Notes under the pieces: model-generated
The model's input: only the letters and a program-made list of their open reading frames with translations
Database searches by the model: none
Told to the model about the DNA's origin: nothing
Shown here: positions 971-22,592 of the stretch, one piece after another
Layout of the letters: each line of letters opens with the position of its first letter
Position numbering within the stretch: the first letter of the stretch is position 1
Program-made: the position numbers and the translations under genes
NCBI GenBank assembly: GCA_964503625.1
Contig: CAZDAU010000002.1
Location: forward strand, 32,768-96,767
Length of the DNA stretch: 64,000 nt
Direction of reading: 5' to 3'
Origin: an uncultured Anaerolinea sp.
GTDB taxonomy: Bacteria > Chloroflexota > Anaerolineae > Anaerolineales > UBA4823

Positions 971-3094
971 ATGCTGTATTGGAGCCGCACGGGGAGTATC
1001 TTTGATCTCCTGGCCTGGTTGTTGCTCTCCGGCTTGAGCTTTTTGGGCGGATGGCTGTTGTGTGTGCACCAATTTAACCTGCGCTCACGCGAGCGACTGT
1101 TCGCCGGCATTACCCTGGGAACGATGCTCCTGATGTTCACGAGCAATCTCCTGGCCCAGATCATTTCGCTCAGAGCTGCTTTCTGGGCCAGCGCAATGGT
1201 GATCCTGGGGCTGGGCTTTTTGGCCGCCTGGCGGTCTTCCCAAAGACCGCGTTTTCCGCTGGGCGACTTTTGGGTCTGGAGTCAATGGCTGGCTTTCCTG
1301 GGAATATTTTTATTCTTCATCCTGGTCAATCGGGGCCTGGCAATCTTTGATGACTTTGTCAATCTACCCATGGTGGCGGCCCTTGCCACTGGCGATGTGC
1401 CGCCGCATTTCTACCTGAATCCGGAAAAGATGCTCGATCACCACTACGGCATGCATTTGCTGGCGGCCGGCCTGGTGGAAATTGGCGGTTTTTTCCCCTT
1501 CAGCGCTCTGGATGTTTACAAGGCCTTTTCGATGGCGCTTGGGCTGATCTTGCCCTGGTTGTGGTACCGACGGTTTATTGGCGATGGGCGGAGCTGGTTT
1601 TGGCTGGGTTTGTTCATTCTTTTCGCTGGCGGCACGCGCTGGATGTTGCTTCTCCTGCCGCAGCCGCAACTGGAGCTCATCAGCGCAGGCGTCCAAATGT
1701 TGGGTTCAGCCGCCCAGACAGCTCCCGATCTGGCAAGCGCGCTTTTGAAGGGTTGGGAGATTGCTGGCGATGGTCCATTGCCTTTCCCCTTTGCTTTCAT
1801 GAATGGCATCACCACACCGCTTCCTCTGGCAATGAGCAGCAAAGGAGGGTGGCCCACGCTGGCGCTGCTGTTGTTGCTGGCATCGCGCTCCTGGCGCCCC
1901 GTCCAGGGATTGCTCTTTGGCGTTCTGGTCGCCTCCACGGCATTGGTCTCCGAGACTGTGTTCGTCATGGCCTGGGGAGGGGTTGTTGCCGGCGTGGCAG
2001 TGGAAATCATCCGGCGTTGGTATCTCCACAGATCCTGGGATGGCCTTCTGGGCTGGCTCTGGGTCCTTCTGCCGGGAGCAATCCTGGCGCCCTTGATGGG
2101 AGGCGCGCTGACGGTTACCCTGCAAAATATCCTCCTTTCGGCACGCGGGGAAGAAGTGACTGCAATCATGGTCCCGCCCGTTGGTTTGCGTTGGCCCCCG
2201 GCGCTGCTTTCTGGGCATTTGGGCGCCCTTTCGATCGCAGACCCGGGGCAGTTGCTGATCGCTCTGCTGGAAATCGGTCCCCTGTTATTGCTCGGCCCGT
2301 GGGTGATCCTGGCGCTTCCGGGTTATTTCCGCTCGCGCAAGTTGTTTGCAGGCGGTTTGGTAATTCTGTCCATCGTAAGCTTCCTTGCCCCGATCTTGAT
2401 CCGTTTTGTGGATCGCGATCGGGATATTGCCCGTCTCACTGCCGAGACCCTGAAGGTCTGGATGCTTCTTGGCCTGCCCTATCTGTGGCTGGCTTATAAG
2501 CGCAGCGGTAAGCTGGTTCGTTCAGCAATTGGCACGGCCTATGTGCTGAGCATTTTGGGTGGGGTGGCATTGCTGCCGACTTTGCTGGTGGCAATGGCCC
2601 GGCCGCAGGTCTCGTCTTTTATTGGCCAACCGGATGTCATTCTCAGCCGAACCTATTGGGATCAATTGGAAGAAGATGCCTGGGTGCTGGATCCTCAGTA
2701 CCCCTATCGGCCAATTGTGCTCTTTGGCCGCAGCACCGGCCCAGCATTTGAAACGATCTACTACCGCTTGCCAGAGTTCAAAGCCCTGCTGGATTCGCCT
2801 GACCCGGTTGCAATGGCCCGTGCAGGTTACGATTATGTGTATTTGGATCGCGAGACCTGGCAAAAGTTCACCGGCGATCAGCGCCGTGCCTTTCAGCAGC
2901 CATGTGTCCGGTTGCGCGCCCAACAAAAAGCGGAGACAGGCGATTTTCGCCGGCTGCTCGATATCCGCAATTGTGGCAAGTCGGTTACCGGCTCAATTAG
3001 CGAAAGTCATCCTTTATTGGGTGCCGAGCAGGATTATAATTCAACGACTGAATTTTGGTCTGGTCTGTTTGGAAGAATATTTTTAAGGCTATGA
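971..3094 (+). CDS. Large polytopic membrane protein of unknown function (GT-C-like architecture)
   Basis: 707-aa ORF starting 2 nt after the upstream stop. It has many hydrophobic segments, then a roughly 130-aa soluble C-terminal region (YWDQLEEDAWVLDPQYPYRPIVLFG...). I recognise no family signature. Confidence 0.6.
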   Translation: MLYWSRTGSIFDLLAWLLLSGLSFLGGWLLCVHQFNLRSRERLFAGITLGTMLLMFTSNLLAQIISLRAAFWASAMVILGLGFLAAWRSSQRPRFPLGDFWVWSQWLAFLGIFLFFILVNRGLAIFDDFVNLPMVAALATGDVPPHFYLNPEKMLDHHYGMHLLAAGLVEIGGFFPFSALDVYKAFSMALGLILPWLWYRRFIGDGRSWFWLGLFILFAGGTRWMLLLLPQPQLELISAGVQMLGSAAQTAPDLASALLKGWEIAGDGPLPFPFAFMNGITTPLPLAMSSKGGWPTLALLLLLASRSWRPVQGLLFGVLVASTALVSETVFVMAWGGVVAGVAVEIIRRWYLHRSWDGLLGWLWVLLPGAILAPLMGGALTVTLQNILLSARGEEVTAIMVPPVGLRWPPALLSGHLGALSIADPGQLLIALLEIGPLLLLGPWVILALPGYFRSRKLFAGGLVILSIVSFLAPILIRFVDRDRDIARLTAETLKVWMLLGLPYLWLAYKRSGKLVRSAIGTAYVLSILGGVALLPTLLVAMARPQVSSFIGQPDVILSRTYWDQLEEDAWVLDPQYPYRPIVLFGRSTGPAFETIYYRLPEFKALLDSPDPVAMARAGYDYVYLDRETWQKFTGDQRRAFQQPCVRLRAQQKAETGDFRRLLDIRNCGKSVTGSISESHPLLGAEQDYNSTTEFWSGLFGRIFLRL
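3004..3056 (+). promoter_or_regulatory. 53-bp promoter/operator-like element, copy 1 (inside the 3' end of CDS 971..3094)
   Basis: aagtcatcctttattgggtgccgagcaggaTTATAATTCAACGACTGAATTTT. TATAAT at 3035-3040. Inverted repeat AATTCA(3038-3043)-N5-TGAATT(3049-3054). The last 27 nt match copy 2 at 25 of 27 positions. Confidence 0.5.
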
Positions 3095-4077
3095 GTGACA
3101 CGCCTGTGAGCAAGCAGCCCCTGTGGTCCAGGATCAATAAGACAACGGTGCTGCGGACTGCTGGCACTTTGATTTCCCTGATCTTGCTGGCCAATTTGCT
3201 TTTCCAGCAAGGCTGGGAGCAGATTTTAATGGTGATACGGCAGATTCCGCCCTGGCGGCTGGTTTTGGCTTTTCTACTGATGGTCGTTTCTCGCCTGGCT
3301 GTGGTTGCTCGATGGCAGGTGTTGCTGCGCAGTGGAGATGTGCCGATCACCTATCGCCAGACCTTGCGCATAACGTTTGCCGGTCTGTTTGCGTCGAATT
3401 TCCTCCCCACCACGGTTGGCGGCGACCTGGTTCGCTTTGCCGGTATCCTCCAGCATCACTTTGACGGCGCAGTGGGCGCAGCTTCTTTGATCGCCGATCG
3501 CCTGATCGGAATGGCTGGCATGATCATGGTCTTGCCATTTAGCTTCCCGGTGCTGCTGGCTGGGGATTGGACCGGTGCACAAAGTGGTCTTTTGCTAGGA
3601 AAGCAAACCTGGCTGCTGACCGGCGCGGTTTCTGTGCCGGGGAAATTGCTTCACCGGGCATGGGCGTTTGGACAGCGGGCTTTTCTGCGCATCTACGAGG
3701 CGCTTAAGACCTGGCTGAAGCAACCTCGAGCTTTGATCGTGTCATTGGCGTACACCTGGGTGAACATGCTTTGCCTGTTTGGCGTCCTGGAGATGGTGAT
3801 CGGCGGTGAAGGTATGCCGTTTTGGTTGATCGGAGGGTTGTACAGCCTGGTCTACTTTGTGACTTTGATCCCGATTTCGATCAATGGGTATGGATTGCAA
3901 GAATTTTCCATGACGCTGATCTTTTCAAACCTGGGTCGCGCCTCCATCAGCGAAGGGCTGGCTGCGGCGCTGCTCTTCCGCACGTTGATGGTTTTGGTCA
4001 GTCTGCCGGGTGCGTTGTTTTTGCCCGATATTCTGGCTGCAAAACGCAACCCCTCAGAGCAGGAAGCTCAACTATGA
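3091..4077 (+). CDS. Flippase-like membrane protein (lysylphosphatidylglycerol-synthase TM region / UPF0104-like)
   Basis: The ATG at 3091 overlaps the upstream stop (ATGA, 3091-3094); the ORF-track TTG start at 3055 is in the same frame. Multiple TM segments and the signature ITFAGLFASNFLPTTVGGDLVRF are typical of this family. Confidence 0.7.
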   Translation: MSDTPVSKQPLWSRINKTTVLRTAGTLISLILLANLLFQQGWEQILMVIRQIPPWRLVLAFLLMVVSRLAVVARWQVLLRSGDVPITYRQTLRITFAGLFASNFLPTTVGGDLVRFAGILQHHFDGAVGAASLIADRLIGMAGMIMVLPFSFPVLLAGDWTGAQSGLLLGKQTWLLTGAVSVPGKLLHRAWAFGQRAFLRIYEALKTWLKQPRALIVSLAYTWVNMLCLFGVLEMVIGGEGMPFWLIGGLYSLVYFVTLIPISINGYGLQEFSMTLIFSNLGRASISEGLAAALLFRTLMVLVSLPGALFLPDILAAKRNPSEQEAQL

Positions 4078-4105
4078 ATTCGTCTTTTATGGGAAACCTT
4101 AGATT

Positions 4106-5980
4106 TTGAAACGCACCGTTTTATTCATTCTATTTATTGTTGTTACCCTTGCTGGCCCGGCCTTGATTTTTGGGCCGCTTTCACAAGTCATGCAAAACCA
4201 ACTGGCGCGCCAGTTGCTGTTTTGGACGGTGGCCCTGCTGGGTGGGGCAGTCCTGAAGATTTGGGCAGGCGACGGGAAACCGCATCCATTTCTGGATCAG
4301 TGGTGGAAATGCGTATTGGCTGCAACGATCCTCGAAACCTGTGCTTACGTAGCTGGTTCGCACCTGCCAGATATTTCGGTTTATCCGCTGACCATGGGCT
4401 GGTCGGAAACCAGCCGCTACTATAACGCCTCTTTGTTCTTTTCCGAGCGCATTTATGGCGTATCTGCCCCACCGACAGTTCTGCACCCCAGTCGTTATCT
4501 GATGCAGGCGGTCCCCTTTTTAATCCATGGCACGCCCTTATGGCTGCACAGGGCCTGGCAGGTGCTTCTGTGGCTTGCTATGCCCCTTTTGACGGCGTTA
4601 ATCCTGGTTCGGCGTTTTTTGGGCTGGAAACAGGTTGAAGCCTGGCTGCTTGCGGGGGTTGTGTTTGTGTATCTGATGATTGGGCCGGTTTACTATCACT
4701 TGCTTGTGCCTGTGATCATCATTTTATGGGGTTTTCGCACGGGAGCAGAGCAGCAATGGACAGGTGATTGGGCGGGGTGGAGGCGTCTTGGGGGGTCCTT
4801 GCTTGCTTTGCTGGTTGCCTCAGCCTGGGCTGGGATCAGCCGGGTCAACTGGTTTCCGGTGCCAGGTCTGCTGGCTGCAGCGCTGATCCTGATGGAGCGA
4901 CCGGTCTACTTCAGCGACCGCCAGAGCAATCCAGGCGACAAACTACCCTGGCGGCCTGCGCTTGTCTATATTTTGCGCCTGTCAGGTTGGGTGCTGTTGG
5001 GCACAGCCACGGCTTTGGCTTCTCAGGCGCTATATATTTACTGGTCAGGCAACGAGGCATCCCAATTCACCACCAGCTTTAGCTCGGATTTGCTTTGGCG
5101 GCGGTTGTTGCCCAACGCCTCCTACTCGCTGGGTCTGCTCCCCGCCATTTTCTTGGTTTCATTGCCCATTCTGCTGGTGATCCTGGGCCGGTTGTTGGAA
5201 ACCCAATCTGGCGCCGCTCTTTGGAAGCGCGGTCATTGGTTGCGGTGGTTGGGCCTGGCAGGTGAGCTGTTGGTGCTATTCGTGGGCGGAATGGTGGTGA
5301 GCGTAAAGATTGGCGGCGGCAGCAATTTGCACAACATGGATGCCTACCTGGTCCTGCTGCTGGTGATTGGGGTGTATTTTTACCTGGATAAAGTTGCCAT
5401 TGATTTTCCTGGCCTCTCAGCCGGTGGGCTGTCTGAGAAAAGCTCACAGCCCTCAGTTTCACGCGCATTGCTCAACAGCGGGGTTATCCTGATGGTGGTG
5501 ATCTCGGCGTTCTTCACCGTGTTTTCTCGAACGCCGCCCACACCGCTTCCCGATCCAGCGGTGGTGCAAAGTGGGCTGGATGCCGTCCTGACGCGCGTCC
5601 AGAAAGCCAGCCAGCAGGGAGGGGAAGTGCTGTTTCTTACCAACCGCCACCTGCTGACTTTTGGGATGGTGGAGGGCGTTGAGCTGGTTTCAGAGTACGA
5701 GCGGGTCTTCTTGATGGAAGCGGCCATGGCCAATGCCCCAGAATACCTGGAGCGCTTTCGCCAGGACATGAAGGACCACCGCTTTGCCCTGATCATCAGC
5801 GAGCCGCTTTCGACGCGTTACAAAAGCCCGCAGGCTTCCTTTGGAGCAGAAAACAATGCCTGGGTCCGGCGCGTGTCTCAGGTGGTCCTGTGCTATTACT
5901 ATCCTGTTGAGACCTTGCGCGAGCTCCAGATTCAGGTTTTGGTCCCCCGAGCCAAAGACCGCAAGAATTGTCCAGAATGA
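4106..5980 (+). CDS. Large polytopic membrane protein of unknown function (GT-C-like architecture)
   Basis: 624-aa ORF with a TTG start. It has about 12 or more hydrophobic segments, then a soluble C-terminal domain (GGEVLFLTNRHLLTFGMVEGVELVSEYERVFLMEAAMANAPEYLERFRQD...). Confidence 0.6.
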   Translation: MKRTVLFILFIVVTLAGPALIFGPLSQVMQNQLARQLLFWTVALLGGAVLKIWAGDGKPHPFLDQWWKCVLAATILETCAYVAGSHLPDISVYPLTMGWSETSRYYNASLFFSERIYGVSAPPTVLHPSRYLMQAVPFLIHGTPLWLHRAWQVLLWLAMPLLTALILVRRFLGWKQVEAWLLAGVVFVYLMIGPVYYHLLVPVIIILWGFRTGAEQQWTGDWAGWRRLGGSLLALLVASAWAGISRVNWFPVPGLLAAALILMERPVYFSDRQSNPGDKLPWRPALVYILRLSGWVLLGTATALASQALYIYWSGNEASQFTTSFSSDLLWRRLLPNASYSLGLLPAIFLVSLPILLVILGRLLETQSGAALWKRGHWLRWLGLAGELLVLFVGGMVVSVKIGGGSNLHNMDAYLVLLLVIGVYFYLDKVAIDFPGLSAGGLSEKSSQPSVSRALLNSGVILMVVISAFFTVFSRTPPTPLPDPAVVQSGLDAVLTRVQKASQQGGEVLFLTNRHLLTFGMVEGVELVSEYERVFLMEAAMANAPEYLERFRQDMKDHRFALIISEPLSTRYKSPQASFGAENNAWVRRVSQVVLCYYYPVETLRELQIQVLVPRAKDRKNCPE

Positions 5981-6042
5981 CCCCTGCCGGTTGATCTGTG
6001 ATCCACACGGTCGCCCTGCAATGCCGGTTGGCGCCCTGGATA

Positions 6043-6095
6043 AAATCATCCTTGACCGATCTGGTGTTAGGGTTATAATTCAACGGCTGAATTTT
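6043..6095 (+). promoter_or_regulatory. 53-bp promoter/operator-like element, copy 2 (upstream of the MarR-type regulator)
   Basis: TTGACC (6052-6057), 16-nt spacer, TATAAT (6074-6079). Inverted repeat AATTCA(6077-6082)-N5-TGAATT(6088-6093). The regulator ATG is at 6100. Confidence 0.6.
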
Positions 6096-6099
6096 AGAT

Positions 6100-8441
<2,342 letters not shown>

Positions 8442-8442
<1 letters not shown>

Positions 8443-9803
8443 TGACTGACATTGCCATTCGGGTCGAGGATTTGGGGAAGTGGTACCGCTTGGGCGCTGG
8501 AGTGGGAGCTGGGCGCCCGCGGCAGGAGTATCGCACGCTGCGCGACTCGCTCGCTGTGGCGCTGTCCAACCCATTCCGTCGCAAACCCGGACGAAAAGAC
8601 TCCCCACATGCGGGCTCACCCCCGGAAGAACCGGACGATGAATTCATCTGGGCGCTGCGCAATGTCTCATTTGATGTGCGCAAAGGCCAGGTGATTGGTG
8701 TGATTGGGCGCAACGGCGCCGGCAAGAGCACATTGTTGAAAATTCTCTCCCGCGTCACTGAGCCAACCGAAGGATATGCCGAGGTGCATGGACGGGTCGG
8801 CTCGCTGCTCGAGGTGGGCACCGGCTTTCACCCAGAGCTGACAGGGCGCGAGAATATCTACCTGAACGGCGCTATCCTGGGCATGAAACGCACGGAGATC
8901 GACCGTAAATATGGTGAGATTGTGGACTTCTCGGGCGTGGAAAAATTCATCGACACACCGGTCAAGCGCTATTCCAGCGGCATGTATCTGCGGCTGGCAT
9001 TTGCCGTGGCAGCCCACCTGGAGCCAGAGATCCTGGTTGTAGACGAGGTCCTGGCGGTTGGCGATGCCGAGTTCCAGCGCAAGTGCCTGGGCAAGATGAG
9101 CGATGTGGCCCAGGAAGGGCGGACGGTGCTTTTTGTCAGCCATAACATGTCCGCTATCCTGCACCTGACGGAAGAGGCCATCGTGCTGGATAAGGGTCAT
9201 GTGGTGCACCGAGCCGCTACGGCTGAAGCGGTGGACTTTTATATGTCCTCCGGCCTGGCGCAGATTGGCGAGCGCATGTGGGCGTCTGATGAAGTGCCCG
9301 CTGAAGCCGCTCCTTTCCGCCCCCTGGCGATGCGCCTGAAGAACCGGGCGGGCCAGATTGTAGAGACAATTCGTTCTACCGAAGCCGTCTCAATCGAGGT
9401 GGAGTACGTCTTGGATGCGCCAATCTCTGGCCTGCGTGTGGGCCTCTACCTGCAAACTGCCCGCGGCGAGTATGTCTGGACCTCTTTTGACACGGACGAC
9501 CTGGAGCAGTTTGAGAATTATCCCGTGCGACAGGCGGGTCATTACATTAGCCGCTGCACCATCCCTGCCGATTTCCTCAATGAGGGTCGTTACATTCTGG
9601 GCGTTAACGCCAGCGCCTTCCGGGTGCGGCGTTATTTCCAGGAGGAACAAGCGTTATCTTTCACCGTGGATACCACCAATGCTCCTGGCTCGCAGTGGCC
9701 AGAAGCGCGCCTGGGTCCGGTTCGGCCGCGCCTGGCCTGGCAAATCCAGGCTGAGGAGCAGGCTGGGGAAGCCATTTGGGCCGGGAAAGGCGGAATATCA
9801 TGA
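8442..9803 (+). CDS. wzt: Polysaccharide ABC exporter ATPase with C-terminal carbohydrate-binding domain (Wzt type), copy 1
   Basis: The ATG at 8442 overlaps the wzm stop (TGATG). Walker A GRNGAGKST, signature YSSGMYLRLAFA, Walker B ILVVDE. An extra C-terminal beta-rich domain of about 190 aa (VSIEVEYVLDAPISGLRVGLYLQTARGEYVWTSFDTD...GRYILGVNA) is consistent with a Wzt_C glycan-cap-binding domain. The 8139 start in the ORF track is an upstream read-through of the same frame. Confidence 0.9.
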
Positions 9804-11455
9804 TCGGCAAGCGTACCGTGAAGAAAGTCCTGGGTAAATTGCCATTCACGGCAGAGATCTACTGGCGCTTCATCCAGCAGGGTAAAGCGCCGGCCAAGAA
9901 CTTTTCTTTGCGCAAGCTGGAGAGAAGCCTGCCAGACTGGTGCGCGCAGGCGCAGGCAGCTCGGACCAGCCGCCGGCCTGAGGAGCCCGCTCGCCGCATT
10001 TTGGTCTTTGCCACGCTGCGGTATTGGATTGAGCATGCCGCGCTGTTGAGCGTCTCTCTTGCCGGGCTTGGACACCAGGTAACGCTGGCTTACCTGCCCT
10101 ATGCCAACTGGCGCCGCCCGTACCAGCTATTTGACATTCGCCGCCAGAATGCCTATGCGCGCAATGTTTTACAGATGGCCCACCCGATCATTCAAACGGT
10201 CTCGCTATTGGATGTCAAGCCGGCTTCGGGGCGGGTATTCTCCGCAAATTTATTCCACAACCTGCAGCGGGTCTCGATCCGGGATACGCAGTATACCTTG
10301 CAGATCGAAGACGTCGATCTTAGCGGTGAGAGTGAATCAGCACGCCTGTACCACTTGCGTCTGGAGAGGAACCTGCAAGCAGCCGCAGCTCTCATGGGTT
10401 GGGTTCAATCCATTGACCCGGAACGACGGCCTGAACTGCTCATCACTCCCAACGGCAGTATTTTGGAGATGGGCGCGATCTACCAGGCTGTGCGTTCCCA
10501 GGGCATTCCTGCGGTGACGTATGAATTTGGCGAGCAGCGTGAGCGGATCTGGTTTGCTCAGAACAGCGAAGTGATGCTCCAGGAGACCGATGACCTTTGG
10601 GCGGCGCGCAAGGATCAGCCATTGAACGAGAGTCAGTGGGCCCAGATCAGGGCGCTTTATGCTTCGCGCCAGAACGGTCGTCTTTGGGAGAATTTCGCCC
10701 GCCTGTGGCAGGGGATCCCCAGCCAGGGCGGTGAGCAAGTTCGCCAGGCGCTGGGGTTGGATTCTCGGCCCATTGTGCTGCTGGCTGCGAACGTAATTGG
10801 CGATAGCCTGACCCTGGGACGACAGATCTTCTCTCGCAACATGACCAACTGGCTGGAGCGCAGCGTGCAGTTTTTTGCCCAAAAACCGGATGTCCAGTTG
10901 GTGGTGCGTATCCATCCTGGTGAGCGATATTTGAAAGGCCCCTCGGTCGCCGAGGTTGTGCGCAACGCGTTGCCGCAGATTCCGGCGCACATTCACCTGA
11001 TTGAAGCAGCCGATCCAATCAACACCTACGATCTGGTGCAAATTGCAGACCTGGGACTTGCCTACACCACCACCGTGGGCATGGAAATGCCCATGAGCGG
11101 CGTGCCGGTTGTGCTGGGCGGCAGGACGCATTACCGCGGCAAAGGTTTCACCTATGACCCACAAACCTGGGAAGATTACTTCCGCATGGTGGAGCTGGCT
11201 TTGTCCGAGCCAGGACAGCGCCGCTTGAGCCGCCCCCAGGTGGAGTTGGCCTGGAAATATGCTTATCACTTCTTCTTTGAGTATCCCACACCCTTCCCCT
11301 GGCATCTGCTGAAATTTTGGGAAGAACTGGAAAATTGGCCGGTGGCGCGTGTCCTGTCCAGCGAGGGCCAGGCCATCTTCGGCGACACCTTCCGTTGGTT
11401 AGCAGGTGCGCCGCGCACCTGGAACGCAGCGAGTTCGCCGGATGTTGAGAGATGA
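9800..11455 (+). CDS. Capsule-synthesis family (KpsC/KpsS-like) putative ulosonic-acid glycosyltransferase, paralog 1
   Basis: ATGA overlap with the wzt stop. Motif order resembles KpsS/KpsC: IVLLAANVIGDSLTL ... VQLVVRIHPGERY ... LGLAYTTTVGMEMPMSGVPVVLGG (compare E. coli KpsS LAVLQVYNDSQI ... LVIKHHPMDRG ... VVTINSTAGISALIHNKPL). Paralogous to 28092..29777. Confidence 0.6.
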   Translation: MIGKRTVKKVLGKLPFTAEIYWRFIQQGKAPAKNFSLRKLERSLPDWCAQAQAARTSRRPEEPARRILVFATLRYWIEHAALLSVSLAGLGHQVTLAYLPYANWRRPYQLFDIRRQNAYARNVLQMAHPIIQTVSLLDVKPASGRVFSANLFHNLQRVSIRDTQYTLQIEDVDLSGESESARLYHLRLERNLQAAAALMGWVQSIDPERRPELLITPNGSILEMGAIYQAVRSQGIPAVTYEFGEQRERIWFAQNSEVMLQETDDLWAARKDQPLNESQWAQIRALYASRQNGRLWENFARLWQGIPSQGGEQVRQALGLDSRPIVLLAANVIGDSLTLGRQIFSRNMTNWLERSVQFFAQKPDVQLVVRIHPGERYLKGPSVAEVVRNALPQIPAHIHLIEAADPINTYDLVQIADLGLAYTTTVGMEMPMSGVPVVLGGRTHYRGKGFTYDPQTWEDYFRMVELALSEPGQRRLSRPQVELAWKYAYHFFFEYPTPFPWHLLKFWEELENWPVARVLSSEGQAIFGDTFRWLAGAPRTWNAASSPDVER

Positions 11456-11456
11456 T

Positions 11457-12362
11457 ATGAGCGAAGTGAAGCAGGAAGTTCAACGCTTTTACGATCAGGT
11501 GGGCTGGAAGCTGATCAGTGAGGATGTGTACCAGAACGCGCGCTACGAAGATCTGCGCCCGGTCTCTCGCCGATATATCCACGACTGCCATATGCGGGTG
11601 GCGCGTCACCTGAGAGTCCAGGGGCGGTACTTGCTTGACGCCGGTTCTGGTCCTGTGCAATACCCCGAATATCTGGAGTATTCGCGCAACTATAATTTTC
11701 GTGTATGCGCCGATATTTCTATCACCGCCTTGAAAGAGGCTCGTAAGCGCGTCGGTGAGCAAGGCCTTTTTGTCGTTGCGGATATTGCCAGCCTGCCCTT
11801 CAAGCCAGGCGTGTTCGATGGTGTGGTCACTCTGCATACCATCCATCACCTGCCCGAGGCGGAGCACCTGCCTGCCTTTGTGGAACTGTTCCGCGTGCTT
11901 GCGCCTGGCTGTTCGGCTGTGGTGGTTAACGGTTGGGATCACTCAAGCCTGATGGCGTTGGCCGAGCCTTTCGTGCGGTTGGGCAATTCCTTGCGCTACT
12001 TGTTTGACCGACTGGGCAGGCAGGAAAAACAGCCGGCGGCCGGCGAGATGCAACAACGCCGCGATCCAGCCAAGAGCAAAAAAACTCACAAGATTGAAAC
12101 GGGCAAGGGCACCTTCACCGAAAAGCACGACGCTGCCTGGATCAAGACCCAGGTGGGCCAGCACATGCCTATTGAGATCCTGGTCTGGCGCAGTGTGACC
12201 GTGCGCTTCATGCGTGCGCTGATCCATCCTCGCCTGGGTGGTCGCGCTGCGCTGGGCTTGCTGTTCTGGCTGGAGGAGCGCTTTCCACATTTCTTTGGCG
12301 AGAAGGGCAAGTATCCACTGATTGTGATTCGCAAACCCGAGGAGGCAACCGTCGCTCCATGA
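11457..12362 (+). CDS. Class I SAM-dependent methyltransferase
   Basis: Motif I LLDAGSGPVQ, then FVVADIASLPFKPGVFDGVVTLHTIHHL. The start is ATG 11457 or possibly ATG 11442, immediately after the upstream stop. Confidence 0.85.
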   Translation: MSEVKQEVQRFYDQVGWKLISEDVYQNARYEDLRPVSRRYIHDCHMRVARHLRVQGRYLLDAGSGPVQYPEYLEYSRNYNFRVCADISITALKEARKRVGEQGLFVVADIASLPFKPGVFDGVVTLHTIHHLPEAEHLPAFVELFRVLAPGCSAVVVNGWDHSSLMALAEPFVRLGNSLRYLFDRLGRQEKQPAAGEMQQRRDPAKSKKTHKIETGKGTFTEKHDAAWIKTQVGQHMPIEILVWRSVTVRFMRALIHPRLGGRAALGLLFWLEERFPHFFGEKGKYPLIVIRKPEEATVAP

Positions 12363-13357
12363 ACTGGAATCAAAAAGTCGTGCTGGTCACTGGCGGCACG
12401 GGATCGTTTGGCAAGAAATTTATCGAAATCATGCTGCGGGAGTACCGGCCAGCTAAATTGATTGTCTTCAGCCGGGACGAGCTCAAGCAGCATGAGATGC
12501 GCACCAGCGGCTTCGACCACCCCAGCCTGCGCTATTTCATTGGGGATGTGCGCGATCTACAGCGCCTGCGCCGCGCCATGCATGGGGTAGATGTGGTGAT
12601 CCATGCTGCGGCGCTCAAACAGGTGCCTGCCTGTGAATATAACCCCATGGAAGCCATCAAGACCAATATCCTGGGCAGCGGCAACGTGATCGATGCCGCT
12701 CTGGATGCTGGAGTCGAGAAGGTCATGGCCCTCAGCACCGATAAAGCCGTCAGCCCGGTCAATCTTTATGGGACGACCAAGCTGGCTGCAGAGAAGCTCT
12801 TTGTGCAGAGCAACTCCTACGCTGCCGGGACAAATACTCGCTTTAGCTGCGTGCGCTACGGGAATGTGGTTGGCAGCCGCGGCAGCGTGGTGCCTCTTTT
12901 CATCAAGCAGCGCGCTTCTGGCAAGCTGACGGTCACGGACCTGCGGATGACTCGCTTCTGGCTCACGCTGGAACAGGGTGTGCGGTTTGTTATCCGTTGT
13001 ACCGAGCTGATGCAGGGCGGCGAGGTCTTCGTGCCCAAGATTCCATCAACCCGCATTGTAGATCTGGCCAACGTGATTGCGCCGGACGCCGAGCTGGAAG
13101 TCATCGGCATTCGCCCCGGAGAAAAACTTCACGAATTGTTGATAAACGAAGACGAAGCCCGTTCCACCCTCGAGCGTCCGGATATGTTTGTTGTCACGCC
13201 CACGGCTACTCTGTGGCAGCGTGATCTAAAGTATGAAGGCAGTCCCCTTCCGGAGGGGTTTCGCTACGCCAGCGATACCAATCCGGAATGGTTGAGTGTG
13301 GAGCAAATCCGCGAATTTGTAGCGCCATTTGAAGAGAGTAACCTGATTGAAGTTTAG
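12359..13357 (+). CDS. pseB: UDP-N-acetylglucosamine 4,6-dehydratase (PseB/CapD-short type)
   Basis: KVVLVTGGTGSFGKKFIEIML...LIVFSRDELKQHEMR...LRYFIGDVRD...IHAAALKQVPACEYNPMEAIKTNILGSGNVIDAA...STDKAVSPVNLYGTTKLAAEKLF. This is closest to the PseB pattern. ATGA overlap with the upstream gene. Confidence 0.8.
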   Translation: MNWNQKVVLVTGGTGSFGKKFIEIMLREYRPAKLIVFSRDELKQHEMRTSGFDHPSLRYFIGDVRDLQRLRRAMHGVDVVIHAAALKQVPACEYNPMEAIKTNILGSGNVIDAALDAGVEKVMALSTDKAVSPVNLYGTTKLAAEKLFVQSNSYAAGTNTRFSCVRYGNVVGSRGSVVPLFIKQRASGKLTVTDLRMTRFWLTLEQGVRFVIRCTELMQGGEVFVPKIPSTRIVDLANVIAPDAELEVIGIRPGEKLHELLINEDEARSTLERPDMFVVTPTATLWQRDLKYEGSPLPEGFRYASDTNPEWLSVEQIREFVAPFEESNLIEV

Positions 13358-13416
13358 CCTGCCCTGAAAGGCAAAAAGATCAGGGTTTATCCTTGCCCCA
13401 ATTTGGGAGGCAGTCC

Positions 13417-14358
13417 GTGCGGAGTCGCCGCATCTTGGTCACCGGAGCCAGCGGACTGCTCGGCCTGAACACGGCGTTGGAGGCAGCCAAAGAACACGAT
13501 GTAGTTGGGCAGGTGAACAGCCACCCGCTACGCACCGATGCCTTTGACACGGTTCAAGCCGACCTTCTGGCTCCTGGCGCGCTCGAGCGCCTGCTGGACC
13601 AGGCCCAACCCGAGTGGGTCATCCACTGCGCTGCGCTGGCAAACGTGGACGCCTGTGAGACCGATCCGTTTCGGGCGCGCCAATTGAATAGTGAAATCCC
13701 CCGCCAACTGGCTGAGCTTGTCGCCAGGGGCGGAGCGCGCCTGTTGCACGTTTCTACCGATGCCGTGTTTGATGGCCAGCGCGGCGACTATACCGAAACA
13801 GACGCTCCCAACCCCCTGGGAATCTATGCCCAAACCAAGCTGGATGGCGAGCAAGGCGTGTTGGCCGCCAACCCAAAGGCGATTGTCGCCCGGGTCAACC
13901 TGTTCGGTTGGAGCCTGTCTGGCAAACGCAGCCTGGCTGAGTTCTTCTTCAGCAAGCTCTCGGCTGGCGAATCTTGCATGGGTTTTACCGATGTCTTCTT
14001 CTGCCCGATGCTGGCCAATGACCTGGGACAGGTGTTTTTGAGGATGCTTGACGCCGGTTTGAGCGGTTTGTATCATGCTGTTGGCAGCGAATGCATCAGC
14101 AAATACCAGTTTGGCCTGCGCATCGCCCGCCAGTTTGGGTTGGATGAGCGCCTGATCGCTCCCAAATCGGTTCAGGAGGGCGGCCTGAAAGCTGCCCGCT
14201 CTCCGAACCTCACCCTGCGCACGGCGAAGCTCTCCCAGGCTCTGGGAGAGCCTCTCCCAGGCTTATCCACCGGGCTGGAGAAGTTTTACAGGCTCTATCA
14301 ACAGGGTTATCCTGGTTGGATCAGCCAATTGCGGGAAAGCGGTGCACACCAAAAGTGA
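13417..14358 (+). CDS. RmlD-fold NAD(P)-dependent sugar-nucleotide reductase
   Basis: RILVTGASGLLG...VIHCAALANVDACETDP...LLHVSTDAVFDGQRGDYTETDAPNPLGIYAQTKLDGE. A GTG start at 13417 lies 6 nt after a GGGAGG Shine-Dalgarno; the ORF-track TTG start is 13393. Confidence 0.8.
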   Translation: MRSRRILVTGASGLLGLNTALEAAKEHDVVGQVNSHPLRTDAFDTVQADLLAPGALERLLDQAQPEWVIHCAALANVDACETDPFRARQLNSEIPRQLAELVARGGARLLHVSTDAVFDGQRGDYTETDAPNPLGIYAQTKLDGEQGVLAANPKAIVARVNLFGWSLSGKRSLAEFFFSKLSAGESCMGFTDVFFCPMLANDLGQVFLRMLDAGLSGLYHAVGSECISKYQFGLRIARQFGLDERLIAPKSVQEGGLKAARSPNLTLRTAKLSQALGEPLPGLSTGLEKFYRLYQQGYPGWISQLRESGAHQK

Positions 14359-14433
14359 ATCCTTGGTGATGATTGATCTCTTTGCGAACTTTGTGTTTTA
14401 CTCTAAATCTCTGCCCGGAGGCCTAAAGCTAGT

Positions 14434-15501
14434 ATGGAAATCCAAATTGGTTCACGCCTGATCGGTCCCAATCACCCTACCTACTTCATCGCCGACATTG
14501 CTGCCAACCATGACGGCGACCTGGAGCGCGCCAGGATGCTCATCCGCCTGGCAAAAGAAGCCGGGGCCGATGCCGCTAAGTTCCAGAATTTCAGCGCCCC
14601 CAAGATTGTCTCTGACTACGGTTTTCGACAGATGGGGGGTCAGGTCTCCCACCAGGCATCCTGGAAGAAGTCGGTCTTTGAGGTGTACCAGGCCGCCTCA
14701 ATCCCCTTCGAGTGGACCCTGGACCTGGGAGAGGAGTGCCAGAAGGTTGGCATCGATTATTTTTCCTCCCCATATGACTTTGAAGCCATCGATTGGCTGG
14801 ATCCCTACGTCAGGATGTACAAAGCCGGCTCGGGCGAGATCGACTGGATCGAAGCCCTGGAGCGCATGGCAAGCAAAGGCAAGCCGTTCTTTGTTGCCAC
14901 TGGCGCCTCAACCATCGGAGAGGTGCAGCGCGCCGTGCATGCCATCCTGAAGCTCAACAAGCAGCTGGTGCTTATGCAATGCAACACCAACTACACCGCC
15001 AGCCCCGATAATTATGATCACCTGCACCTGAATGTGCTCAAGACCTATGCTGCCATGTTTCCCGATGTGATCTTGGGTCTATCGGATCACACCCACGCCT
15101 TGGCCCCTGTGCTGGGCGCTGTGACGCTGGGGGCGCGGGTGATTGAGCGCCACTTTACCGACAGCAACGACCGCGAAGGCCCAGATCACAAGTTTGCCAT
15201 GAACCCGGAGAATTGGGCGCGGATGGTTGAAGAGACCCGCCTGCTGGAGCGCGCCCTCGGCTCTGGCGATAAATTCATCACCCCCAACGAAACCGAAACC
15301 GCCGTGGTCCAGCGCCGTTGCCTGCGCGCCGCCCGAGATATCCGCGCTGGTGAGGTCTTCACCCGGGATATGATCGACGTGCTGCGCCCTGCCACCCCCG
15401 GGGCGATCAAGCCTTCAGAGATCGACGCCGTGATTGGGACGAGGGCCTTGCACGAGTTGCCTTTTGGCAAGGAATTGCGCTGGACAGATTTAGGGGCATG
15501 A
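14434..15501 (+). CDS. NeuB-family ulosonic (nonulosonic) acid synthase with C-terminal SAF domain
   Basis: IGPNHPTYFIADIAANHDGDLERARMLIRLAKEAGADAAKFQNF, then LGLSDHT and VIERHFT, then SAF-like CLRAARDIRAGEVFTRDMIDVLRP. The family is NeuB/PseI/LegI; the substrate cannot be assigned. Confidence 0.85.
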   Translation: MEIQIGSRLIGPNHPTYFIADIAANHDGDLERARMLIRLAKEAGADAAKFQNFSAPKIVSDYGFRQMGGQVSHQASWKKSVFEVYQAASIPFEWTLDLGEECQKVGIDYFSSPYDFEAIDWLDPYVRMYKAGSGEIDWIEALERMASKGKPFFVATGASTIGEVQRAVHAILKLNKQLVLMQCNTNYTASPDNYDHLHLNVLKTYAAMFPDVILGLSDHTHALAPVLGAVTLGARVIERHFTDSNDREGPDHKFAMNPENWARMVEETRLLERALGSGDKFITPNETETAVVQRRCLRAARDIRAGEVFTRDMIDVLRPATPGAIKPSEIDAVIGTRALHELPFGKELRWTDLGA

Positions 15502-15548
15502 TGCTGTGTTTTTGTTGATGCGGGCCGGGCGAAAAAACCAAACCGCTG

Positions 15549-16706
15549 ATGAAAATTTTATACTTCACCCGCGACTATACCAGCCATGATTACCGCTTCC
15601 TGGACAGGCTGGCAAAGTCGGGCCATGCAATCTACTACTTGCGGCTCGAGCGGCGTGGGCATGTTTTGGAAGATCGCCCGCTGCCGCCAGAGGTGGAAAT
15701 TGTGCATTGGATGGGGGGGCAGTCACCGGCTCGCTTATCCAACGGCCCGCGCCTTCTATTGGGTTTGAGGCGAGTCATCCGCAACCTGCAACCGGACATC
15801 CTGCATGCAGGGCCCTTGCAGCGCTCGGCTTTCCTGGCCGCGCTGACCGGCTTCCAGCCGCTGGTGAGCATGTCTTGGGGCTATGACTTGCTCCAAGACG
15901 CGCAGCGCAACGCCGCCTGGCGCTGGGCAACGCGTTACACCCTGCAGCACAGCGCGGCCCTGGTTGGCGACTGCGAAACCATCCGCCAGTTGGCGATCTC
16001 TTATGGTATGCCTGCTGATCGGATTGTCACCTTCCCCTGGGGGGTGGACCTGGAGCACTTTTCACCTGGGGATCGTTGGACCAGGCCAAACCAACCGCAG
16101 CCGGAGGCTATTGAAAAGCCCTTTACCCTGCTCTCCACCCGCAATTGGGAGCCAATCTATGGTGTGGAGACCATTGCCCGGGCCTTTGTGCAGGCCGCCC
16201 GCCAGCAGCCGGAGTTGCAGTTGGTCATGTTGGGCAACGGCTCGCAGGCAGGTTTGTTGCGCCAGGTCTTATCCCGAGAGGGTTTGCTGGATGGGCCAGG
16301 CGCAGGCAATTACCCTCGGGTATTGTTGCCCGGCCAGGTGACCTATGCCGACCTGCCGCGGTTTTATCGCCTGGCTGATTTATATGTTGCTGCAACCCAC
16401 AGCGACGGCACATCCATATCTCTATTGGAAGCGATGGCTTGCGGCTGCCCGGCGCTGGTCTCGGATATCCCAGGCAACCGTGAGTGGATTGCGCCAGGCG
16501 AAAATGGCTGGCTCACGCCGGTTGGGAATGTGGATGCCCTGGCGCAAGCGATGCTGCGGGCTGTGGAAACACGCCGCAACCTGCCCGAGATGGGGCGTGC
16601 TGCCCGGGCCCTGGCAGAGCAGCGCGCCGACTGGAACGCGAATTTCCCCCGGCTTTTTGAGGCTTATCGGCTTGCCCGCACAATTGGCATGAAACACAGG
16701 CGATGA
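15549..16706 (+). CDS. Glycosyltransferase, GT4/group-1 family
   Basis: N-terminus MKILYFTRDYTSHDYRF. C-domain ADLYVAATHSDGTSISLLEAMACGCPALVSDIPGNREWIAPGENGWL (E-x7-E region). Confidence 0.85.
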   Translation: MKILYFTRDYTSHDYRFLDRLAKSGHAIYYLRLERRGHVLEDRPLPPEVEIVHWMGGQSPARLSNGPRLLLGLRRVIRNLQPDILHAGPLQRSAFLAALTGFQPLVSMSWGYDLLQDAQRNAAWRWATRYTLQHSAALVGDCETIRQLAISYGMPADRIVTFPWGVDLEHFSPGDRWTRPNQPQPEAIEKPFTLLSTRNWEPIYGVETIARAFVQAARQQPELQLVMLGNGSQAGLLRQVLSREGLLDGPGAGNYPRVLLPGQVTYADLPRFYRLADLYVAATHSDGTSISLLEAMACGCPALVSDIPGNREWIAPGENGWLTPVGNVDALAQAMLRAVETRRNLPEMGRAARALAEQRADWNANFPRLFEAYRLARTIGMKHRR

Positions 16707-17521
16707 AATTGTCCCAGACTGTTGCTATCATACAAGCCCGAATGGGTTCCTCCCGCCTGCCTGGCAAAGTGCTGCTCGATATTGCCGGGCAACCGATGCT
16801 GGGCCGCGTGGTTGAGCGGACGCGCCAGGCAAAGACCATCGATCAGGTGATTGTTGCCACAACCGTCGAGCCAGGCGACGACCCGGTGGCTGACTATTGT
16901 GACGCCCACGGATACCCGGTCTATCGCGGCAGCCTGCACGACGTGCTCGATCGTTACTACCAGGCGGCCCGTTGGTCCGCAGCAGAAACTGTGGTGCGCA
17001 TCACCGCCGATTGTCCTCTAATCGATCCTGAGGTTGTCGACCGGACTGTCCAGGCTTTTCATGGGGCAGATCTGCCGCATTTGCAATGCCTGAACCCTGG
17101 TTTGCCGGGCGGCTACGCGTTTTGCGCCAACCGCTTGCCGCCGCCCTGGGGGCGCACCTACCCCATTGGCCTGGATACAGAGGTTTGCGCATTCACCGAC
17201 CTGGAGACTATTTGGAAAGAAGCCCAGGAGCCGCATCAACGCGAGCATGTGATGCCCTTTTTTTATGATCACCAGGAACGCTTTAAGATCCTGCTGGTGC
17301 ATCACGAAACGGATTACGGCGCTTTGCGGCTGACCGTCGATACTGCTCAAGATTTAGAGCTGGTTCGTCAGGTCTTTGCCCGCTTTCCTGGGCGCGACGA
17401 CTTCTCCTGGCTGGATGTTGTGGCTTTGCTTGAGCGCGAGCCTGCTCTGCTGGCCATCAATGCCCAGGTGCAGCACAAACATTATCGCCAGGTGGATGAG
17501 CGGCGCGCTCACCTCGGATAA
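16703..17521 (+). CDS. SpsF-type cytidylyltransferase (CMP-Kdo-synthetase homolog)
   Basis: VAIIQARMGSSRLPGKVLLDIAGQPMLGRVVERTRQAKTIDQVIVATT...YRGSLHDVLDRYYQAA...VVRITADCPLIDP. ATGA overlap with the upstream gene. Confidence 0.8.
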   Translation: MKLSQTVAIIQARMGSSRLPGKVLLDIAGQPMLGRVVERTRQAKTIDQVIVATTVEPGDDPVADYCDAHGYPVYRGSLHDVLDRYYQAARWSAAETVVRITADCPLIDPEVVDRTVQAFHGADLPHLQCLNPGLPGGYAFCANRLPPPWGRTYPIGLDTEVCAFTDLETIWKEAQEPHQREHVMPFFYDHQERFKILLVHHETDYGALRLTVDTAQDLELVRQVFARFPGRDDFSWLDVVALLEREPALLAINAQVQHKHYRQVDERRAHLG

Positions 17522-17526
17522 AGACC

Positions 17527-18438
17527 ATGCCTGGAAAAACACCTTTTCTGGCTCTGTTTTCTGCTCCCAAACCTTTCACCAACCCCCATATCGCCATCAT
17601 CCAGCGCAACGCAGTTCAGTCCTGGCTGCACCTGGGCCCGGACGTGGAAGCGATGCTGGTTGGCGAAGAGGCCGGGATGGCCGAAGTTGCCCGGGAGTAT
17701 GGTATCCGCTGGTTGGCGGATGTGCAACGCACGGAATCTGGGACGCCATTGGTCAGCTCGATCTTTGCCCTGGCGCGCCAGGCGAGCGATTGTCCATTTT
17801 TGGGTTATGTCAATGGCGATATTCTGGTCTTGCCGGATATTTTGGAAGCCACCCGCCAGATTTCCGCTCAGGTCAGCGGGCCGTTCCTGCTGATCGGCCA
17901 GCGCTGGGATCTCGATGTGATCGAGCTGCTCGATTTTTCACCAGGCTGGGAGGCGCGACTGCGCGCCGATGTCAGGGCGCGCGGCCGGTTGCACCGCCCG
18001 GCTGGCAGTGATTACTTTGTCTTTCCCCGCTCGGCATTTACCGAGATGCCCGACTTCGCTATTGGGCGCGCCGGCTGGGACAACTGGATGATCTACCATG
18101 CCCGCCGGCAGAGCTGGCCGGTGATCGATGGCACGCCTTCCGTAATGATTGTGCACCAGAGCCACGACTACAGTCACCTGCCCGGCGGTAAGCCGCATTA
18201 TAACCACCAGGAAAGCCAGCAAAACATGGCTAAGGCGGGCGGACAGGCGAATATGTACATGGTGCTGGATTCGGATCGTCAATTGAAAGGCGGCCGGGTG
18301 CAGCGCCCCCCATTGACCACCTTGCGGGCTTTGCGCACAGTTGAGCGCTGGCTGATGCCCAGCGACGGCAGTCTGCGCGGGATGCGCGGCGCCCTCACCC
18401 GGCAATTTCGCCGTATGCGCAGAAGGTTATACGGATAG
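17527..18438 (+). CDS. Hypothetical protein, possibly a GT-A-fold glycosyltransferase
   Basis: 303-aa ORF in an operonic position. FLGYVNGDILVLPD (DxD-like) and GSDYFVFPRSAF...GRAGWDNWMIYHA suggest a nucleotide-sugar transferase fold. Family not recognised. Confidence 0.45.
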   Translation: MPGKTPFLALFSAPKPFTNPHIAIIQRNAVQSWLHLGPDVEAMLVGEEAGMAEVAREYGIRWLADVQRTESGTPLVSSIFALARQASDCPFLGYVNGDILVLPDILEATRQISAQVSGPFLLIGQRWDLDVIELLDFSPGWEARLRADVRARGRLHRPAGSDYFVFPRSAFTEMPDFAIGRAGWDNWMIYHARRQSWPVIDGTPSVMIVHQSHDYSHLPGGKPHYNHQESQQNMAKAGGQANMYMVLDSDRQLKGGRVQRPPLTTLRALRTVERWLMPSDGSLRGMRGALTRQFRRMRRRLYG

Positions 18439-18440
18439 CT

Positions 18441-19451: not shown

Positions 19452-19453
19452 AA

Positions 19454-20476: not shown

Positions 20477-20488
20477 TCATCACCGTGC

Positions 20489-22539: not shown

Positions 22540-22544
22540 AAAAC

Positions 22545-22553
22545 TGCTATAAT
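22545..22553 (+). promoter_or_regulatory. Extended -10 promoter element TGCTATAAT upstream of sat-cysC
   Basis: Exact TGnTATAAT in the 69-nt spacer between 22539 and 22608. Confidence 0.5.
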
Positions 22554-22592
22554 TGCCGCTTGTGCTATCAAGCGAACTATTGAACTATTTGA

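Follow-up and report, generated by a model that had tools for sequence, protein, structure and literature searches.

A repeated promoter element with a putative dyad operator for an adjacent winged-helix regulator at envelope-glycan genes of Anaerolineales

Analysis of a 64-kb stretch of Anaerolineales DNA (the window) showed two copies of an element that is constrained at the level of DNA, one ahead of the gene for a small winged-helix (wHTH) regulator and one ahead of a flippase-like gene; each copy is probably a sigma-70-type promoter with a dyad operator for a dimer of that regulator, providing negative autoregulation and the co-control of envelope-glycan genes. In the mechanism that we propose, the -10 hexamer and the predicted transcription start are embedded in a dyad of 17 to 21 bp, AATTCA-RYNRY-TGAATT, which would be the operator of the adjacent 170-aa regulator; a regulator homodimer would bind the two half-sites, one helical turn apart, and block RNA polymerase. 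Copy 2 would mediate negative autoregulation of the regulator together with control of the co-directional epimerase, Wzm, and Wzt glycan genes, and copy 1 would subject the flippase-like gene and a gene for a 624-aa membrane protein to the same regulation. Elsewhere in the Anaerolineales, the operator may also govern gmd (encoding GDP-mannose 4,6-dehydratase) and genes for a GtrB/ArnC-like polyprenyl-phosphate glycosyltransferase and GT-C-like membrane proteins, and the targets together would form a small envelope-glycosylation regulon; the repressor would be released by some signal, for which the C-terminal alpha/beta domain of the regulator is the probable sensor. We infer binding of the regulator to the dyad from their co-occurrence only, and repression from the position of the operator.

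Segments 3004-3056 and 6043-6095 align without gaps and are identical at 37 of 53 positions, rising to 25 of 27 in the blocks at their ends (3030-3056 and 6069-6095), in agreement with a sequence-only reading of this DNA that had described a 53-bp element in two copies, each with TATAAT and the inverted repeat AATTCA-N5-TGAATT. With up to three mismatches, the 27-nt block occurs exactly twice in the 64-kb window and in none of 100 dinucleotide shuffles; with up to one mismatch, the palindrome occurs only in the two copies, against 0.12 occurrences expected. A weight matrix derived from 74 orthologous sites scored the two copies at 47.6 and 40.0, the same two palindromes on the reverse strand at 19.6 and 10.7, and the next-best site in the window at -3.9; neither the matrix nor a palindrome search allowing up to three mismatches found further sites in the window. 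The motif search that the sequence-only reading had proposed was run on the window, on the loci of relatives, and on metagenomes, and the genuine sites recovered precede the regulator gene and a few glycan genes.

The predicted promoter/operator element of copy 2 (6043..6098; forward strand, as are copy 1 and the genes between 971 and 9803) lies upstream of the regulator gene and is conserved at 80 of 80 genome loci. Its -35 hexamer TTGACC (6052..6057) and its -10 hexamer TATAAT (6074..6079), the latter with a G at -14 ahead of it, are separated by 16 nt, as had been noted before, within the 16- to 18-nt range of sigma-70 promoters, and match the sigma-70 consensus at 11 of 12 positions; TTGAC is kept in 61 of 78 orthologous sites. 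The 17-bp dyad AATTCA-ACGGC-TGAATT (6077..6093), the putative operator, overlaps both the -10 hexamer and the predicted start, which we place at about 6086-6087 because transcription usually starts 7 nt downstream of the -10 hexamer. With copy 2 running to 6095 and the regulator starting with the ATG at 6100, the predicted mRNA leader measures about 13-14 nt and has no Shine-Dalgarno sequence, a sequence that many regulator genes at related loci also lack; a transcript previously thought nearly leaderless would thus have a short leader.

Copy 1 (3004..3059) is composed, in order, of an upstream block AAGTCATCCTT, a degraded -35 element, a spacer, the -10 hexamer, the dyad, and TTTTGG. Its -10 hexamer TATAAT (3035..3040) is perfect, but the -35 position (TTTATT, 3013..3018, placed by alignment with relatives) matches TTGACA at only three of six bases and A replaces G at -14, so that copy 1 in the window is possibly a weak promoter; the -35 element is intact, CCTTGACC, in two relatives (L202 and L203). 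Alternatively, the main role of copy 1 may be that of an operator or a roadblock inside a read-through transcript. Its own 17-bp dyad, AATTCA-ACGAC-TGAATT (3038..3054), likewise a putative operator, has half-site centers 11 bp apart. The copy runs to 3056, ahead of the flippase-like ATG at 3091, and the site is kept upstream of the flippase-like gene in three relatives (L001, L202, and L203), which is consistent with an earlier proposal that a second regulated promoter serves the genes from 3091 onward. Copy 1 had been described as lying inside a coding region, and it does fall within the open reading frame at 971..3094, which encodes a 707-aa polytopic membrane protein, but only within a nonconserved C-terminal tail (about 2960-3094): homology to orthologues stops at FRRLLDIxxC, about 45 codons ahead of the stop. 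The orthologous copies are intergenic in L202 and L203, and the one in L001 is crossed by an open reading frame whose frame differs from that in the window. The coding context of copy 1 is thus a nonconserved tail, and it is the DNA that is under selection. Other species have orthologues of each of the two copies, distinguished by spacer sequences particular to that copy; the duplication is therefore old and both copies have been maintained.

The first gene after copy 1 encodes the flippase-like membrane protein (LPG_synthase_TM / TIGR00374; 3091..4077), whose start, ATGAG(C/T)GA, is conserved in the alignment with relatives; the second gene of the unit encodes the 624-aa polytopic membrane protein (4106..5980), with orthologues in L001 and L202, and neither this protein nor the 707-aa one belongs to a family in Pfam or NCBIfam. 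Behind copy 2, co-directional genes for an NAD-dependent epimerase, a Wzm ABC-2 permease, and a Wzt ATPase (6605..9803) overlap the regulator gene and begin a long co-directional glycan cluster that reaches about 62.7 kb. As for gmd, the window holds only a 24%-identical dehydratase paralogue (54.6-55.5 kb), which has no motif upstream.

Phylogenetic footprinting in 80 species-level Anaerolineales genomes, fetched via the regulator protein alone, supports the view that the element is an autoregulated operator of the adjacent wHTH gene, as had been suggested from the window. In all 80, the transcription unit of the regulator is preceded by (C)TTGAC(C)-N16-gTTATAATTCA-RYNRY-TGAATTTTGRA; the motif stands within the 160 nt ahead of the regulator in 75 genomes and upstream of a gmd-regulator operon in 3, and 2 loci are truncated at contig ends but retain the right arm or the dyad. 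No mismatch is found in 17 fixed bases of 70 of the 78 complete sites, and the TATAAT hexamer is invariant in 74 of 74 orthologous sites; because both the matrix and the metagenome scan are built on pattern matches, degenerate sites are missed and such invariance is somewhat overstated. Near-total invariance over about 22 nt is stronger than is usual for a transcription factor site and suggests added constraints from the -10 hexamer, the start site, and the 5' leader. The metagenome scan, which used the DNA pattern only and is independent of the protein, returned 123 matches: 67 lie ahead of regulator homologues and 25 ahead of gmd, 5 more are truncated matches read as gmd or regulator starts, 3 precede genes of the GtrB/ArnC-like GT2 class, a few precede genes for large GT-C-like membrane proteins, and about 18 of the 123 are AT-rich chance matches without the flanking signature. 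A regulator homologue thus directly follows 67 of about 105 genuine sites, and all genuine sites are oriented toward the downstream gene, whose start is about 10-130 nt away.

The regulator (170 aa; 6100..6612) passes the gathering thresholds for a MarR-family wHTH (PF01047 / PF12802), scoring 34.5 bits for MarR_2 (cut-off 27) and 31.1 for MarR (cut-off 24.6), along with 49.2 for HTH_24. In an AlphaFold model (pLDDT 87), the wHTH occupies residues 1-67 and is followed by a single long helix of 38 residues (68-105) and a small C-terminal alpha/beta domain with conserved GxGxxA and CxxxC. The label of a MarR-type regulator, given before, therefore holds for the wHTH but not for the predicted architecture as a whole: canonical MarR proteins (about 140-150 aa) have the wHTH sandwiched between N- and C-terminal dimerization helices, whereas the model places it at the extreme N terminus. 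A PDB sequence search gave only weak wHTH matches, to FabT and MarR proteins, and structural matches in the PDB span only about 100 residues (TM 0.33-0.45, normalized to the query), the best for the N-terminal 100 residues being HcaR, FabT-DNA, MexR, and MepR-DNA. For the isolated C-terminal domain, Foldseek gave nothing significant, the best match reaching only E = 0.08 (LptE-like proteins and PRTase fragments). The best NCBIfam match is TIGR04176, "MarR family EPS-associated transcriptional regulator," over residues 9-104 and the full 105-position model (E = 3.1e-19), at 69 bits against a curated cut-off of 88; by its sequence, the regulator is related to TIGR04176 but falls short of the curated criterion for membership.

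It is unlikely that the dyad is bound by a different transcription factor and that the wHTH gene is merely one member of the regulon. In favor of such an arrangement, the site also stands ahead of gmd, GT2, and other genes, so that the regulator gene could formally be just another target. However, among the genes with the site, only the wHTH gene has it in all of the 80 genomes, and no DNA-binding protein other than its product recurs consistently at the loci. The recognition helix and wing of the regulator do not vary among 54 homologues that share 68-91% identity (G33...N40, R45, K49-R56, Y64-G70); these predicted DNA-contact residues are thus as invariant as the site itself, a match that we count in favor of pairing the two. 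Finally, the dyad lies over the regulator's own promoter, and a dyad beside its own transcription factor gene is a classical signature of autoregulation, which we take here as a sign pointing to the regulator.

Considerably less probable is a specialized strong promoter only, with a particular sigma factor, a conserved discriminator, or a conserved initially transcribed sequence, in which the symmetry would be incidental. Conservation of the -35, the -10, and G-14 would agree with this, as would the invariant TTTTGRA downstream of the dyad, which falls outside the symmetry. Conservation is nonetheless mirror-symmetric, including the degenerate R-Y-N-R-Y core (R9/Y13 and Y10/R12): the arms are invariant and the center is degenerate, and we know of no promoter model that predicts mirror-symmetric conservation about a center. 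Moreover, the hexamers are of the housekeeping type, yet the element is confined to a handful of gene families.

The same symmetry bears on the slightly more improbable explanation that the element acts in RNA, as a hairpin or leader motif in the 5' UTR (for copy 1, in a read-through mRNA) controlling stability or translation. In its favor, a 6-bp stem can form from the inverted repeat, copy 1 folds with z = -2.5, and the half that is transcribed, UGAAUUUUGRA, does not vary in front of genes that often lack a Shine-Dalgarno sequence. Against it, the left arm overlaps the -10 hexamer, and the promoter's own transcript therefore cannot contain the hairpin; the stems are weak (-2.9 and -6 kcal/mol), and copy 2 folds no better than shuffled sequence (z = -0.95). 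The arms never vary and so offer no compensatory change, and the inner positions are nonpairs in 28-30% of cases. Variation at dyad position 9 is independent of that at position 13 (chi-square p=0.14), and 25% of sites carry A.C there. A weak association of center positions 2 and 4 (odds ratio of about 2.4) was considered as pairing and rejected, since it would leave a 1-nt loop and is explicable by sequence relatedness. Rfam gave no match at the gathering threshold in the whole window and nothing relevant at E<=1 in 2900-6300. A symmetric center that does not covary fits two equivalent protein half-sites, not base pairing, and of the DNA- or RNA-level function envisaged earlier it is the DNA level that applies: the constraint does not act at the level of protein or RNA. 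The last alternative is a chance match, a remnant of recent local duplication, or a dispersed or mobile repeat without regulatory role, to which the presence of just two window copies as direct repeats 3,039 bp apart might point; a common dispersed repeat had been raised by the sequence-only reading itself. It is effectively refuted by a 27-nt match far beyond chance, by the old and maintained pair of copies, and by sites that number only 1-2 per 20-kb locus beyond the window, always face gene starts, and precede a restricted gene set. A dispersed or mobile repeat would instead be numerous, would face both ways, and would bear no relation to where genes start.

The autoregulated operator that we favor has partial counterparts among known systems. 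The wHTH DNA-reading head is shared with MarR, MepR, OhrR, FabT, and HcaR, and MarR/marO-type autorepressors likewise have a dyad over their own -10/+1 region plus extra copies at target genes; unlike in those systems, the targets here are glycan-biosynthesis genes and the site hardly varies throughout a whole order. TIGR04176 proteins are also encoded in exopolysaccharide loci, but the regulator described here has about 65 extra C-terminal residues and comes from Chloroflexota; literature searches turned up no operator for members of that family, nor do we know of one. Residues 1-95 match in fold the wHTH plus long coiled-coil helix of Sso10a (PDB 4hw0; TM 0.77 normalized to the target, rmsd 2.7 A), an archaeal chromatin or general DNA-binding protein, with which the model shares a wHTH followed by a long, likely dimerizing helix; Sso10a differs in having 21% sequence identity and no C-terminal alpha/beta domain. 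JUMPstart/ops with RfaH and the UpxY systems of Bacteroides are transcribed-leader elements that recruit NusG-like antiterminators and act on elongation. These resemble the present case in that a short repeated DNA element heads surface-polysaccharide operons and is tied to a dedicated regulator, whereas here the promoter itself, with its putative dyad operator, is the element, and a wHTH protein accompanies it. The ARG box (the ArgR operator, TGAAT-N4-ATTCA) has the pentamers TGAAT and ATTCA in common with the dyad; identity is rejected because the half-sites are reversed (ATTCA-N5-TGAAT), the spacing differs, and no arginine genes lie downstream, and half-site arrangement and gene content rule out identity with other known operators. 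Literature searches on MarR_EPS/TIGR04176, on Anaerolinea regulons and operators, and on Chloroflexi regulon reconstruction turned up neither the regulator nor the motif.

More tentatively, and with the balance against it, we speculate that the regulator-operator pair might be a master switch, operating across the order or the class, for envelope glycosylation in the Anaerolineae, sensing a nucleotide(-sugar) or redox signal via the undescribed C-terminal alpha/beta domain. Such a switch would cover GDP-sugar supply, polyprenyl-phosphate sugar synthesis, flipping, and GT-C transfer, and the near-invariance of about 27 nt would then reflect three overlapping codes, those of the -10/start site, the operator, and the 5' leader without a Shine-Dalgarno sequence.

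Sediments, digesters, and activated sludge harbor members of the Anaerolineae in abundance, but few of them have been cultured; to our knowledge, none has genetic tools and almost nothing is known of their transcription regulation. As read here, the element is a conventional self-regulating switch hitherto undescribed in Anaerolineales (Chloroflexota). Because the circuit is a standard autoregulated repressor-operator pair, the gain lies in annotation and tractability and not in a new principle. The finding offers a concrete promoter and putative operator, identical across the group, together with a candidate surface-glycan regulon, and the defined candidate protein-DNA pair is suited to in vitro work and to the annotation of thousands of metagenomic contigs.

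The repeated element preceding the regulator gene is probably the operator of the adjacent 170-aa winged-helix (wHTH) regulator (6100-6612, plus strand), as the sequence-only reading had proposed, and its conservation, position, orientation, co-occurrence with the regulator, and DNA-level constraint make this the best-supported interpretation. Inspection of the sequence confirmed the two segments, copy 1 (3004-3056) before a flippase-like gene and copy 2 (6043-6095) before the regulator gene, which are identical at 37 of 53 positions in an ungapped alignment and at 25 of 27 positions in the 3' 27 nt (3030-3056 versus 6069-6095). Matches to the inverted repeat AATTCA-N5-TGAATT are confined within the window to these two copies. 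In copy 2, TTGACC-16 nt-TATAAT agrees with the sigma-70 consensus at 11 of 12 positions and is the top promoter-like site of the first 12 kb; copy 1 shares the -10 and the dyad but reads TTTATT at the -35 position. We suggest that a strong housekeeping-type promoter would have its -10/+1 region covered by the operator, resulting in negative autoregulation of the regulator and coregulation of a few envelope-glycan operons; copy 1 would serve the flippase-like/624-aa gene pair and copy 2 the regulator-epimerase-Wzm/Wzt unit.

With about 8,000 matches, of which the best 120 are 71 to 91% identical, the regulator's family is very large and tightly conserved. The relatives of the regulator all come from Anaerolineales/Anaerolineae metagenome-assembled genomes (MAGs); the identical sequence is present on one JGI metagenome contig. 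When 80 species-level genome loci were retrieved via the regulator protein alone and their upstream DNA was then inspected, (C)CTTGAC(C)-N16-gGTTATAATTCA-N5-TGAATTTTGRA was found directly 5' of the start codon in essentially all of them. The core (at most 2 mismatches in 17 fixed bases, at most 160 nt from the gene) was present in 75 of the 80 loci, 68 times with no mismatch; in three more it precedes gmd, the GDP-mannose 4,6-dehydratase gene, with the regulator gene immediately after, and two contigs (L044 and L080) start within the motif, so that all 80 loci carry it. Chance expectation in the 1.26 Mb of loci is about 0.2 matches, assuming uniform base composition. One contig labeled as a Syntrophothermus sp. 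MAG (L042; JBLNAU010000033.1) has both regulator and motif in the form typical of Anaerolineales and is probably misbinned. In another locus (L022), two tandem regulator paralogs with nearly identical N termini each have their own motif (8015-8036 and 9950-9971), and in L041 (9927-9990) a second, degenerate copy (GATACAATTCGTCCATTGAATTATGG) lies about 20 nt after the canonical motif, immediately 5' of the start codon, and the pair may be a tandem operator. Across loci L001 to L200, most regulator genes begin 4 to 20 nt past TGAATTTTGRA without a recognizable Shine-Dalgarno sequence, whereas a clear AGGAG is found for gmd genes that follow this motif. The transcribed half of the element, which is invariant, may thus have a second role in translation initiation of the regulator.

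Residues 6 to 58 of the regulator match the MarR/HTH_24 winged-helix families of Pfam. TIGR04176 ("MarR family EPS-associated regulator") is the best NCBIfam model; the match spans the entire model, yet scores 69 bits against a curated cutoff of 88. The AlphaFold model (pLDDT, 87) comprises an N-terminal wHTH, a 38-residue helix, and a small beta-alpha-beta-beta-beta domain. Foldseek retrieved MarR-family structures, including the DNA complexes of FabT, MepR, and ZitR, with which the fold is shared over about 100 residues only; Sso10a-2 ranked highest by target-normalized TM score, and the C-terminal domain alone gave no significant PDB match. The DNA-reading head of the protein is thus MarR-like, and its architecture is not. 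No variation occurs across 54 homologs in the recognition helix and wing or at G115, D118, I119, C123, and C127 of the C-terminal domain, and almost none occurs at G117 and A120, which defines GxGxxA and CxxxC motifs. This alpha/beta domain (6412-6579; residues ~105 to 160) presents a Rossmann-like G115-x-G117-x-x-A120 loop, with C123 and C127 on one helix; it could be a sensor of a nucleotide or nucleotide sugar, redox state, or metal, and the regulator would respond to such an effector. Binding of the regulator to the element is predicted, and its action would be repression rather than activation; that another transcription factor binds the dyad instead is unlikely.

Within the 80 loci there are 22 further copies, always on the strand of the next gene. 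Fourteen precede gmd (MPTALITGITGQDGSYL...), excluding the three gmd-regulator operons, and three precede genes for 320- to 340-aa GT2 proteins of the GtrB/ArnC type with C-terminal transmembrane helices; single copies precede a second regulator paralog, a PMT_2-like 634-aa membrane protein, a DUF2268 protein (doubtful, with 2 mismatches), and the flippase-like gene in locus L001. To be independent of the regulator as a starting point, the bare pattern TTATAATTCA-N5-TGAATTTT was also scanned against metagenome contigs, giving at least 123 matches on at least 120 contigs. Among the 123 listed matches, 67 lie directly before a regulator homolog, 25 before gmd, 3 before the GT2 class, and a few before large membrane proteins or a 310-aa protein without known family; 5 are at contig ends readable as gmd or regulator starts, and about 18, taken to be chance, fall in AT-rich DNA that has neither the R...Y center nor the GRA tail. 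On this distribution, the element is not a generic promoter or a dispersed repeat and marks a small regulon.

A promoter without operator function is quite improbable. In a weight matrix of 74 sites, conservation is mirror symmetric (AATTCA/RYNRY/TGAATT) and extends, with one mismatch, to A-x-AATTCA...TGAATT-x-T. Of 186 nonredundant genuine sites, 72 have G-C, 47 A.C, 43 G.T, and 16 A-T at central positions 1 and 5 (the outer pair), where the two bases vary independently of each other (P = 0.14). At the inner pair, 30% of sites are nonpairing, and pairing there would leave a loop of 1 nt. Three bases of the left arm also belong to the -10 hexamer. An RNA element, which an inverted repeat might otherwise suggest, is highly improbable: the predicted stems of the two copies are weak (-2.9 and -6 kcal/mol), no Rfam family matches, compensatory changes are absent across the sites examined because the arms never change, and a transcript starting about 7 nt past the -10 would lack the hairpin, as its start falls inside the dyad. 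The symmetric conservation, independent center, weak stems, and left arm overlapping the -10 fit reading by a dimeric protein at two equivalent half-sites with centers 11 bp apart. Chance or a dispersed repeat is negligible as an explanation of the copies, since the 27-nt block (at most 3 mismatches) occurs twice in the window and in none of 100 dinucleotide-preserving shuffles, and the downstream genes are so restricted.

The sequence-only reading had also placed copy 1 in a coding region. The open reading frame (ORF) at 971-3094 does span the site, but its tail is not conserved: homology among four orthologous membrane proteins does not extend past FRRLLDIxxC, about 45 codons short of the stop in the window, and the upstream ORF crosses copy 1 in different frames in the window (...EQDYNSTTEFW...) and L001 (...SRVIIQRLNFG...). 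The site is kept in the closest relatives having the flippase-like gene, namely, L001 (regulator 84% identical; 3,060 nt between copies versus 3,039 nt in the window), L202, and L203, and in the latter two it is intergenic with an intact CCTTGACC at -35. The coding context is thus a nonconserved ORF extension across an ancestrally intergenic promoter, with the constraint acting on DNA. Copies 1 and 2 have separate lineage-specific spacers (GAGCAGGrT and CTGGATAGGGT, respectively), so the duplication is old and both copies are maintained. As the -35 of copy 1 has decayed in L001 as well as in the window and all copy 1 sites have A in place of G-14, copy 1 may be a weaker promoter or partly an operator inside read-through transcription. 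In the close relative L201 (4894-7513, corresponding to 971-6612; regulator 89% identical), the 707-aa ORF ortholog, a single motif, and the regulator adjoin directly, with neither the flippase-like nor the 624-aa gene present, exactly as expected for a deletion between direct-repeat copies or, conversely, for an insertion on the lineage leading to the window.

The whole window is taken up by a single, very large surface-glycan locus with nearly all genes codirectional. A GT1 glycosyltransferase (52-969) is followed by the 707-aa polytopic membrane ORF (971-3094), the flippase-like LPG_synthase_TM/TIGR00374 protein (3091-4077), a 624-aa polytopic membrane protein (4106-5980), the regulator, and an epimerase overlapping the regulator stop; then come, up to 12.4 kb, Wzm/Wzt ABC transporter genes, a capsule synthesis-like protein, and a methyltransferase. 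The 707-aa and 624-aa proteins have no Pfam or NCBIfam match and may be divergent GT-C glycosyltransferases, since in related loci PMT_2-like or GT-C-like proteins are encoded behind the motif. Farther downstream lie PMT_2 and several more glycosyltransferases and, at 12359-32214, two NeuB-type nonulosonic acid synthases, a CMP-sugar synthetase-like cytidylyltransferase, a fused ATP sulfurylase/APS kinase, and sulfotransferases; this content suggests a sulfated glycan with nonulosonic acid, exported via the Wzm/Wzt transporter, which is unusual for Chloroflexota. Two pairs of direct repeats (families D2 and D3; 66 to 70 nt, 73 to 74% identity, offset by about 1.5 kb) at 35273-35773 and 36756-37295 indicate two adjacent paralogous genes.

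An autoregulated repressor-operator circuit is of a textbook type; our literature search turned up no account of the regulator, its motif, or the regulon. Although regulators within the order are down to 58% identical, the element of about 27 nt hardly varies across it, and it gives experimenters ready access to transcriptional control in a group that is abundant but genetically intractable.
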